From: Octopus vulgaris
Lineage: Eukaryota
DNA: 64,000 bases
Direction: 5' to 3'
NCBI GenBank assembly: GCA_951406725.2
Contig: OX597815.1
Span: forward strand, 45,136,001-45,200,000
Under the pieces are notes generated by a model. It saw only the letters and a program-made list of their open reading frames with translations. It had not been told where the DNA came from and ran no database searches. Positions 28,102 through 61,395 of the stretch are shown one piece after another. Both the position numbers and the translations under genes were made by a program. Every line of letters begins with the position of its first letter. The stretch's first letter is position 1.

Positions 28102-28614
28102 GAAACAAAATGTTAATTTTTTCATATCATTTTGTCAATATCTGGTGTCATGTTAGTGTCATTATTGTTATTTTATGTTTACATCTAACATTTATATTTA
28201 ATGGCATTATTTGAGGTTTTGTGCATTCAACTACTTAAACCTAATAGTCGTATAATCGCGAACATTTTGCATTTGATTAATCTCTTATTCCTGCTAAAAT
28301 AGACCGGGAACCACGAGGCCTCCAAAAAATGGCCAGGGAAACAAAATGTTAATTTTTTCATATCATTTTGTCAATATCTGGTGTCATGTTAGTGTCATTA
28401 TTGTTATTTTATGTTTACATCTAACATTTATATATAATGGCATTATTTGAGGTTTTGTGCATTCAACTACTTAAACCTAATAGTCGTGTAATCGCGAACA
28501 TTGTGCATTTGATTAATCTCTTATTCCTGCCAAAATAGGCCGGGAACCGCGAGGCCTCCAAAAAATGGCCAGGGGCCGCGAAGCAAAAATTGTGAAAAAG
28601 GTTGAGAACCACTG
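28102..28614. mobile_element. hAT (Charlie-like) terminal fragment with 236-bp internal tandem duplication
   Basis: Terminus AAGGTTGAGAACCACTG (rc CAGTGGTTCTCAACCTT). Unit starting GAAACAAAATGTT at 28102 and 28338, nearly identical. Confidence 0.75.
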
Positions 28615-39864: not shown

Positions 39865-40003
39865 TGCGAGGAAGGGATGGCCTCCCTTTGCAAATACTTC
39901 AAGGGCACTGAAAGGCTGTCTAAAGCCAGCTGGAGACGATGATCTCCTGGGGCTAAAAGCTACAGTAACACCCCCACTTTGTGGTTAGCCATATTGAGAT
40001 GGC
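39865..40003 (+). mobile_element. Diverged fragment of the 353-bp HHR-repeat family
   Basis: CCCTTTGCAAATACT...GCCAGCTGGAG...CTCCTGGGGCTAAAA.CTACAGTA...GGTTAGCCATATTGA.ATGGC shared with 56210-56345. Confidence 0.8.
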
Positions 40004-55699: not shown

Positions 55700-55772
<73 letters not shown>

Positions 55773-56147
55773 ACAATGATAAATATCAAAGTGAGTTATA
55801 TACAGTAGCGGTAACACATCGTGACGTATTTTTGCCATTTCAATATGGCTAACCCCTAAGGGTGGATGCTACTGTAGTTTTTAGCCCCAGGAGGACACAC
55901 TCCTCCAGCTGGCCATAGACACACTTTCTGTGTCCTGTCAATATTTGCAACAGTAGCATCCACCCTTAGGGGTTAGCCATATTGAAATGGCAAAAATACG
56001 TCACGATGTGTTACCACTACTGTATATAACTCACTTTGATATTTATCATTGTTTGATTTCACTTTTTCAATATCAGCGACAGTGGGCGCTGGAAAAAGTA
56101 TAAGTATTTGTGAAGGAAATCTAATTCTCGGCGACAACTATGATTGT

Positions 56148-56192
56148 CACACGCTGACGAGAGGTCAATACAGCGAAACTCGAGTCAGTGTG
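56148..56192 (+). ncRNA. Type I hammerhead ribozyme, copy 1 (stem I/II mismatches)
   Basis: CACACG-CUGACGA-GAGGU CAAU ACAGC-GAAA-CUCGAG-UC-AGUGUG. Confidence 0.75.
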
Positions 56193-56500
56193 TATCATAA
56201 GTTGAAGACGGGAAGGATGACTTCCCTTTGCAAATACTGACAGGACACAGAAAGTGTGTCTATGGCCAGCTGGAGGAGTGTGTCCTCCTGGGGTTAAAAA
56301 CTACAGTAGCATCCACCCTTAGGGGTTAGCCATATTGAAATGGCAAAAATACGTCACGATGTGTTACCGCTACTGTATATAACTCACTTTGATATTTATC
56401 ATTGTTTGATTTCACTTTTTCAATATCAGCGACAGTGGGCGCTGGAAAAAGTATAAGTATTTGTGAAGGAAATCTAATTCTCGGCGACAACTATGATTGT

Positions 56501-56545
56501 CACACGCTGACGAGAGGTCAATACCTCGAAACTCGAGTCCGTGTG
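56501..56545 (+). ncRNA. Type I hammerhead ribozyme, copy 2 (canonical, intact)
   Basis: CACACG-CUGACGA-GAGGU CAAU ACCUC-GAAA-CUCGAG-UC-CGUGUG. GUC cleavage after 56539. Stem I extends via UAUGAU/AUCAUA. Confidence 0.92.
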
Positions 56546-56709
56546 TATCATAAGTTGAAGACGGGAAGGATGACTTCCCTTTGCAAATACTGACAGGACA
56601 CAGAAAGTGTGTCTATGGCCAGCTGGAGGAGTGTGTCCTCCTGGGGCTAAAAACTACAGTAGCATCCACCCTTAGGGGTTAGCCATATTGAAATGGCAAA
56701 AATACGTCA

Positions 56710-56754
<45 letters not shown>

Positions 56755-56758
<4 letters not shown>

Positions 56759-57604
56759 TATGTGGGCACAGGACGTTATGAAATGTTTACAACAAAAAAA
56801 TACGAAGCACGAGTATATAGAACATGAACTATTCTTCCGAACAACGAAAGACACAAATGAAAAACAAAATAAGCACAAAGAACGACCCCTCATCAGTTGT
56901 TGGCTGTTTCTCTAGTCTCGTATTTCGAGCATTTAACAACAATATACGCCTTCGATAAAACAGTTGCTCCCGCAAAGCAGATTAAATAAAATTTGGATTT
57001 TGCGGAAGGTCAAAATAGCCAACACAGACAGGACAGTGAAAACAAACACGAAGGTCTGCTAAGCCTAAACAAGGACGCGCACTCTATACGATTTTTTACT
57101 CTTTCGTTTTTTCTTTCTTTCTTTTACCTTCTCTTCTCCCACTATTCTATCCTATTACTCTCTCTCCTTCAATCCTCTTCCCTTGGTCACGTGGCCCCCA
57201 CGTGACAATCGGCTGTCTTTCTTTCTCTCCGTTGTAGCTGGAACAAGGAAGACGTGTTCTTGTTTGTCTCGTGACCTAGCTTGATTGACGCATTCGCCAC
57301 CACAACCTCGTTTAGGCTTAGCAGCCCTTGTTTTCTATGTCCTGTTTGTGTTACCTATTTCGACCCTCCGCAAAATCCCCAATTTTATCTAATTTGCTCT
57401 ACGGGAGCAACTGCTTTATCGGAAGCGTATATTGTTGTTAAATGCTCGAAATGCGAGACTAGGAAAGCAGCCAACAACTGATGAAGGGTCGTTCTTTATG
57501 TTTGTTTTGTTTTCCATTTGTGTCTTTCGTTGTTGGAAAGAATAGTTGATGCTCCATGTACTTATTCTTCGTACGTTTCATGAGGTTCTGTGCCCACGTA
57601 TGCG

Positions 57605-61194: not shown

Positions 61195-61395
61195 CGTCTG
61201 TATCACTAGCGATTTTTACCCCTGTCTTCCCTTCTCGGGATCTTTCCTTCTCCTATGTTTCCGACGAAGAGCTCCGCTCGAAACTTCAAACCCTCCTCCT
61301 TCCCTTCTTTCCTGAGCGTCCAATAATACTTTATTTGTTCCACGTCCTTGCGTTGTTGTTTTTTTGTTTTTGTTTTCCTGTTTGGATTAACTTTA
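61195..61395 (+). mobile_element. PLE-like pLTR with minimal HHR (61257-61291)
   Basis: GUUU-CCGACGAA-GAGC UCC GCUC-GAAA-CU-UC-AAAC, between (TA)n tracts. Confidence 0.7.

Follow-up and report, generated by a model that had tools for sequence, protein, structure and literature searches.

The window (the whole 64,000-nt stretch of Octopus vulgaris DNA analysed here) holds a copy of a young non-LTR retrozyme family that, on the anatomy of its insertions, probably parasitises a Neptune-type Penelope-like element (PLE) and may spread by a five-step cycle built around a circular RNA.

Organisation of the locus

A direct repeat with a period of 353 spans 55950-56713 in 2.2 copies (2.16 units), with five mismatches between the tandem copies across 55950-56360. 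The inverted arm that precedes it (55772-55950, 179 nt) differs from 56228-56406 at 2 positions, and (TA)n flanks the repeat on the left and on the right. An initial annotation of this DNA had described just such a 353-bp tandem with an inverted 179-bp leader and (TA)n on both sides, and repeat analysis and sequence comparison confirm it. It had also placed one type I hammerhead in each unit, on which a motif scan and matches to Rfam RF00163 agree: the CUGACGA core occurs at 56154 and 56507, and the GUC sites end at 56186 and 56539. Units are numbered from the first base after the cleavage site (+1 = 56187). The locus is a single inverted insertion with one end at each of two sites, A and B, and is a slightly damaged copy of the family. 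Its features are as follows; the sites that bound the 'tail' are presumed to be reverse-transcription start sites.

55748..55771, no strand: (TA)n target, left side
55772..55950, minus strand: inverted arm, unit positions 42-220; outer end 55772 is site B
55950..56713, plus strand: direct arm, unit positions 117-353, 1-353 and 1-174 (2.16 units); outer end 56713 is site A
56148..56192, plus strand: type I hammerhead copy 1, defective; predicted cleavage site after 56186
56501..56545, plus strand: type I hammerhead copy 2, intact core; predicted cleavage after 56539
56187..56539, plus strand: predicted 353-nt monomer between both cleavage sites; 42% G+C, strongly folded, non-coding
56361..56406, plus strand: 'tail' between the preferred 3' end sites A (56360, +174) and B (56402-56406, +216-220)
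56714..56755, no strand: (TA)n target, right side; AT common to target and site A

Other repeats share the window. A second element embedded in (TA)n occupies 56756-57604, with inverted arms of ~270 nt (84%); it is matched in 10 other loci of 222, in tandem at L190, a hammerhead scan of it found none, and it is likely another non-autonomous family of PLE type. An old fragment of the retrozyme family itself (unit 25-158, 80% identity) lies at 39870-40003. Two 236-bp tandem copies, 97% identical, make up 28102-28574, where the hammerhead scan found none. At 61261 (+), and again at L190:3164, an unrelated common repeat carries a minimal hammerhead-like motif with a CCGACGA core and a 4-bp stem II, without helix III.

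A young and dispersed retrozyme family

An exact 45-nt hammerhead pattern matches the genome (2.8 Gb, 227 contigs) 407 times and its reversed control 0 times. Contigs C1-C3 contribute 95 of the exact matches, in 57 loci that were all retrieved, and scaling from these puts the family at about 250 loci of dispersed insertions. The copy-number search suggested at the outset thus yields exact hammerheads dispersed genome-wide; a separate 25-mer count gives 510 exact copies. Our sample combines the 57 C1-C3 loci with 24 top-scoring full-unit loci, for 81 locus records and 83 insertion records. L020/L021 and L051/L053 are apparent duplicates, L031 is two copies of one insertion and L054 is a stray fragment; L021 and L031 were left out of the haplotype, junction-crossing and arm-containment counts. 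L031 was also considered as an autonomous element and rejected, its two hammerheads, 3250 bp apart, being duplicates inside a low-complexity repeat.

The sampled insertions diverge from the majority base by 0.84% on average, and with family divergence under 1% the description of the repeat as young holds. Older subfamilies, at 75-92% identity, retain the fold and still end at A and B. Many contigs carry the unit as free, non-coding tandem arrays of at most about 6 copies (1-6 per arm). The outcome feared earlier, that the unit would prove to be only the pLTR of a coding PLE, is not what we find, since these arrays stand free and have no reading frame of their own; genome-wide, they are what a non-autonomous non-LTR retrozyme family, as first proposed, should look like.

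The unit has the anatomy of that class. It is a tandem unit of 353 bp, within the range of about 150-450 bp, dispersed as dimers to multimers, with a type I hammerhead in each unit (defective in copy 1 of the window locus). It is non-coding and non-autonomous, below 50% G+C and highly self-paired as a monomer, has no LTRs, and is flanked by target duplications of >4 bp where these are present. The reading frame with RT and GIY-YIG that would mark an autonomous EN+ PLE is absent from it. By anatomy, we are confident that the family belongs to the non-LTR retrozymes; cleavage and the circle, the two defining features at the RNA level, are predicted for it. The octopus and cephalopod hammerhead, ribozyme, Penelope and Neptune literature that we searched holds no account of this family.

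Hammerhead motifs and monomer fold

Against RF00163, the type I hammerhead model, copy 2 (56501-56545) scores 32.2 bits (E 7e-6) and copy 1 (56148-56192) 22.5 bits (E 0.012). The Infernal comparison proposed earlier therefore recovers both copies, although both fall under the gathering score of 34, and an Rfam search of the window at the gathering threshold gave no matches. MicroRNA matches in the window at E-value level are artefacts of (TA)n or of the inverted repeat. Copy 2 has a 6-bp stem I with a distal extension to about 56488-56557, a 5-bp stem II, and a 2-bp stem III with a palindromic UCGA loop. With an intact core and the best RF00163 score at the locus, it is indeed the canonical motif described beforehand, extended stem I and palindromic loop 3 included. 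Metazoan type I motifs usually have just such a 2-bp helix III closed by a palindromic loop, and invertebrate retrozymes are described as cleaving as monomers and axolotl retrozymes better as dimers (PMC7229834, PMC4209133, PMC6155905). Among predicted Xenopus retrozyme dimers, however, only 1 of 9 cleaved (bioRxiv 2026.07.22.740005).

Copy 1 carries the three substitutions previously noted, at 56172 and 56173 in stem II and at 56187 in the first pair of stem I. They break two stem II pairs and introduce a G-A mismatch beside the predicted scissile bond (after 56186). The stem II and +1 changes also create complementarity to the copy's own stem I 5' strand and favour a non-hammerhead hairpin (-25.9 vs -21.2 kcal/mol). 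Its stem II changes are private, being absent from all the others of 79 insertions.

Every core of a double hammerhead is built from one half of each copy. The proposal that copy 1 may cleave as a dimer with copy 2 runs into this geometry, in which the lesions would be shared out, the stem II damage going to one core and the G-A mismatch at the scissile bond to the second. As each core would inherit one lesion, the window locus is probably unable to release monomer efficiently and probably makes a poor parent. Because the lesions are private to the locus, the construct suggested for in vitro cleavage (56100-56600) would be a poor test of the family, and likely to fail.

The 353-nt monomer has a predicted fold of -118.3 kcal/mol (z -5.3), equalled by 0 of 100 shuffles, and a natural intact unit folded as a circle reaches z -6.4 against 60 shuffles. 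The long-range helices picked out by eye in the initial annotation occur in the predicted monomer fold, the 14-bp helix with two G-U pairs; the predicted ensemble leaves stem III unformed. The monomer is 42.5% G+C, the longest stop-to-stop frame within the unit is 66 aa, and a search for PLE protein matches in the window found none.

The hammerhead shows signs of conservation. Across 18 hammerhead pairs in 32 young and old copies, 92% of cells are paired and double changes number 13 vs 4.9 in shuffles, far above slid controls, and compensatory changes appear in 12 of 95 monomer pairs (15 sequences), all counts that are drawn from related sequences, so that the events are not independent. At the cleavage site, the NUH rule leads one to expect changes of C17 to U or A and not to G; genome-wide substitutions (U 7, A 7, G 0) fit this rule. 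The base of stem II is G10.1-C11.1 in the young family and C-A, C-U or U-U in older subfamilies, which spread with a mismatch there; of the 32 rows, 24 are unpaired at this position, and some older subfamilies carry CCGA instead of CUGA. Among L123-L150 and L203-L220, this base is C-A in the oldest copies, then C-U/U-U, and G-C in the young family, accompanied by a G-C to A-U compensation in the next pair. Given the sub-threshold scores, the unpopulated stem III and the stem II mismatches and CCGA of older copies, an efficient ribozyme may not be required for the family to spread.

Insertion ends point to a PLE

The 3' ends of the insertions lie away from the cleavage site, at two fixed internal sites. 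From 127 such ends, 64 fall at +174 and 8 at 170-172 (site A), and 47 at +215-222 (site B); by an eye count, (TA)n follows all but about ten of them. The 83 insertion records divide into 44 inverted and 39 direct. Inverted insertions pair one A end with one B end in 40 of 44 cases, with A/A 0, B/B 0 and one other end in the remaining 4, and independent choice of ends would yield A/B in at most half. Direct insertions (n = 39) have their 3' end at A in 30, at B in 5 and elsewhere in 4, and their 5' ends are scattered over 1-334. Target duplications of ~8-13 bp occur at non-TA sites in four insertions (L048, L064, L136, L144). At site A the RNA reads AUGUGU and could pair with a TATATA primer end via two G-T wobbles. 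Complementarity to the target is poor at site B, which suggests that position rather than pairing probably sets it.

Published PLE insertions are described as partial tandems accompanied by a 5'-truncated copy in inverse orientation, with a 30-40 bp tail that is often confined to one end (PMC8557442, PMC3846280), and the tail has been described as the segment bounded by two internal start sites of reverse transcription (PMC11167929). The octopus insertions have the same partial tandems, inverted 5'-truncated copy and one-end tail, in a (TA)n or AT-rich target common to the unit and the PLEs examined in the genome. The initial annotation had left the mobiliser as a PLE or a LINE. Together, the fixed internal 3' ends, one-end tail, head-to-head inversions and (TA)n argue for the former and against the latter, and mobilisation by a PLE is very likely. 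The strict one-A-one-B rule quantifies a feature so far described as 'often at one end only'.

The reverse-transcribed template

The +1 cleavage junction is crossed by 101 of 122 arms, twice or more by 48, at least three times by 15 and at least five times by 3, counts biased upward by the choice of loci with an intact hammerhead. Across the genome, 18 hits lack C17, and only 3 of these are ends at +1. The cDNA passes precisely through the cleavage site, for up to 6 units. This read-through argues for a circle or an uncleaved multimer as template and against a cleaved linear monomer.

Haplotypes narrow the choice. An allele seen in at least 5 insertions is fixed throughout its insertion in 67 of 73 cases and mixed in 6; with a cut-off of at least 3 insertions, the corresponding counts are 74 and 16. 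Rare alleles are present in every covering copy in 19 cases (up to 6/6, in both arms) and in part of the copies in 3; singletons number 167. Comparison of the two arms gives identical alleles at 34 of 39 informative sites (shuffled mean 0.15, maximum 0.35) and full agreement in 25 of 30 insertions, with exceptions in a mosaic array (L004) and an insertion with two different arms (L215). For a mutation to fill every unit of both arms a monomer bottleneck is needed, and a circle gives it directly. On balance these patterns favour a monomeric, presumably circular, RNA as the template.

Three arms have their 5' end at +1 (both arms of L209/L210, and L214) vs 1 at a control position, so that a 5'-end pile-up at the cleavage site is not significant; the sampled set, which is biased against such ends, has 0. 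In L209/L210 (G000:C2:201423260-201423343), both inverted arms begin exactly at +1 and are joined by short repeats of the first 20 nt, an arrangement that looks like cDNA run-off from a cleaved linear monomer.

The family could instead be a non-autonomous PLE derivative copied from linear uncleaved multimers, or by template jumps on a linear monomer, with no circle and with the hammerhead a passenger or active outside transposition. The same end signatures would be expected. In vitro, an anole PLE inserted unprocessed RNA from internal starts, no reads ended at the hammerhead site and hammerhead mutants made no difference (PMC11167929). The mosaic array L004, and older subfamilies that still spread with imperfect stem II, also suit a linear template. 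We nevertheless regard it as unlikely. A mutation in one unit of a multimer should reach one daughter unit, yet alleles are fixed 67 to 6, and rare ones fill up to 6 units in both arms, as a monomer bottleneck would have it. Typical template-jump junctions are not exact, whereas the +1 junction is exact in 407 copies. The hammerhead, moreover, is conserved with compensatory changes and without C17G.

We give little credence to single priming, in which the cDNA would fold back and prime its own inverted arm, and endonuclease resolution would create the A/B difference. Self-priming and endonuclease resolution have been proposed for PLEs (PMC3846280, PMC8557442); they would explain the shared haplotype of both arms at once, inner junctions are near-palindromic at L042 and L055, and 31 of 39 inverted insertions are compatible. 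However, in 8 of the 39 neither arm is contained in the other, where fold-back predicts 0 and independent priming 11.1 +/- 2.7. Inner junctions are in the same phase in only 2 of 39, the longer arm is the A arm in 23 and the B arm in 16, and the arms of L215 and of L018 (see below) derive from different templates. Local growth of a satellite or minisatellite through slippage or unequal crossover is highly improbable, as is a SINE moved by a LINE, and this reading is already largely refuted: the organisation is tandem, gene conversion can homogenise units and local amplification of PLE termini into arrays has been suggested (Li et al., bioRxiv 2026.07.22.740005), but the insertions are dispersed over many contigs as 1-6 units with fixed internal 3' ends and random 5' ends, show target duplications and head-to-head inversions with sequence-overlapping arms, and have a unit without poly(A) or a repeat tail of its own.

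Candidate partner elements

A GIY-YIG search gave 148 matches among 150 scored of 6136 candidates, and about 70 loci were examined. The four autonomous RT + GIY-YIG families examined all insert in (TA)n. Three PLE proteins that were scanned have RT and GIY-YIG domains and the CX4CXXC linker of Neptune/Nematis, the motif on which our label 'Neptune-type' rests. The autonomous PLEs end at two sites ~30-42 nt apart, the first followed by ATATAT in their own RNA, and inverted insertions of the Neptune-type elements are A/B in 3 of 3. No pseudo-LTR homologous to the unit was found in the loci of the four families (150 of 6136 GIY-YIG candidates scored). An 81% match beside the PLE frame at L114 is a separate older insertion, not the pseudo-LTR of that element.

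One PLE family, F18, is a possible though tentative partner. Its copies are 95-99% identical, and L195 keeps an intact 784-aa frame; the protein has no match among solved structures. At L018, a 5'-truncated F18 arm is joined head-to-head to a 5'-truncated retrozyme arm through a 7-nt filler, without (TA)n. The PLE arm stops at its own site B and the retrozyme arm at +274, not A, and no target duplication ties both arms to one event. At L146, a 415-nt RT fragment, 78.6% like F18 and 71-73% like other PLE families, is bordered on one side by (TA)n and joined on the other to an old unit at its 5' end, with no (TA)n at that junction. Of 5238 candidates from a targeted search, 40 were scored, and these contained no further chimera. 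Since insertion with deletion could mimic chimeras, two in about 130 loci are a lead and not proof. Among rejected candidates, L180/L194, L057 and L046 are tail-to-tail neighbours in a shared (TA)n, and at L061 a PLE of family F61 is cut about 65 nt before its end, on the same strand, and may reflect insertion with deletion.

The PLEs have motifs of their own. In the 3' untranslated region of L191, L199 and L201 (F18, F61), ~60-130 nt before site A, hammerhead-like motifs have UUGAAAA for CUGAnGA, U3-A8 replacing C3-G8; the F61 motif has a perfect stem I. The L114 PLE family has C(C/U)GAAGA at its hammerhead-like core. In L104 (at 1438-1444), L191, L194 and L195, an upstream frame (437-479 aa) without a Pfam match overlaps the RT frame in -1, and a conserved U UUU UUA slippery site stands at the overlap in two PLE families. 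An ORF1 separated by a frameshift is noted for PLEs (PMC8557442, Fig. 1 legend).

A model for movement

In the cycle that we propose, a tandem array would be transcribed, type I hammerheads would excise the 353-nt monomer, and a host ligase would circularise it. The GIY-YIG endonuclease of the PLE would then nick the target, (TA)n or another AT-rich sequence, on both strands, a step to which the insertion ends point strongly. Next, the PLE reverse transcriptase would start cDNA from one target end at site A (+174) and, in roughly half of the events, from the second end at site B (+216-220) of the same RNA; the end positions are observed, and this enzymology would account for them. Each cDNA would follow the template round past the cleavage junction and stop after a random length of at most 6 units, the read-through being observed and the circle its presumed cause. 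Finally, short microhomology would serve to join the cDNA ends to each other, or one of them to the target. More speculatively, and with perhaps a one-in-three feel to it, an asymmetric Neptune-type PLE dimer, with F18 as partner, might sit on a single 353-nt circle and prime A and B by its two active sites in rolling-circle target-primed reverse transcription.

Comparison with known systems and significance

The nearest class is that of metazoan non-LTR retrozymes (Cervera and de la Pena 2020, PMC7229834; coral, mussel 350-390 bp, axolotl 331/353 nt). As described there, these share with the octopus family a non-coding tandem unit of 150-450 bp with one type I hammerhead each, a short helix III with a palindromic loop, G+C under 50% with strong self-pairing, target duplications of >4 bp, and a genome that also contains PLEs. 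For them, cleavage, circles and expression were demonstrated; for the octopus family they are presumed. In that paper the step from circle to tandem cDNA and the PLE partner are put forward as hypotheses, and the passages that propose them give no start sites, A/B rule or haplotype test, on which the supplement may bear. For vertebrate retrozymes, Li, Clavereau and Pollet (bioRxiv 10.64898/2026.07.22.740005) reach the same conclusion, that PLEs mobilise retrozymes, from co-occurrence and pseudo-LTR homology in 35 species, no mollusc among them. The octopus case rests instead on insertion-end anatomy and, unlike those vertebrates, yielded no homologous pseudo-LTR in the loci of the four PLE families examined.

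The insertions equally resemble those of EN+ PLEs, namely Neptune/Nematis (PMC8557442, PMC3846280) and the anole Poseidon PAc (PMC11167929). Shared features are 5'-truncated partial tandems, a head-to-head inverted copy, a one-end tail, (TA)n targets (with duplications of 8-10 bp in those PLEs), two internal starts that bound the tail, and cutting and extension of both strands. In contrast to EN+ PLEs, the octopus unit has no reading frame and forms whole-unit arrays of up to 6, its tail is 43-46 nt rather than 30-40, and its hammerhead is canonical rather than minimal. In vitro, PAc start sites did not differ between the strands (PMC11167929), whereas octopus inversions are strictly one A and one B. 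By its ends, then, the family works like PLE insertion, yet it is not an autonomous PLE. The hammerhead itself shares a type I fold, 2-bp helix III and palindromic tetraloop with newt satellite 2, Schistosoma Sm-alpha and the cricket satellite (RF00163), and its loop 2 ends in AAUA like the RF00163 consensus; outside the motif the unit is unrelated to these satellites, as far as Rfam shows.

Already known are the retrozyme class, the argument in print for PLE mobilisation and the one-end tail. The literature searched offers no mapping of retrozyme start sites, strict A/B count or haplotype test, with the proviso that the supplements of PMC7229834 and the bioRxiv paper may bear on these. PLE mobilisation and the circle as tandem-cDNA template, the two central steps of retrozyme movement, are still hypotheses in these papers as presented. 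Should circles be absent, the octopus family would simply be another non-autonomous PLE derivative. Young (<1% divergence) and legible in about 250 insertions, with defined start sites and with intact proteins of candidate partners encoded in the same genome, it makes both steps, and the origin of PLE tails and inversions, directly testable in vitro. If the asymmetric-dimer reading is true, F18 and the unit would form a reconstitutable pair for testing retrozyme movement and PLE inversions, and the one-end tail and head-to-head inversions would reflect two active sites at work on one template.
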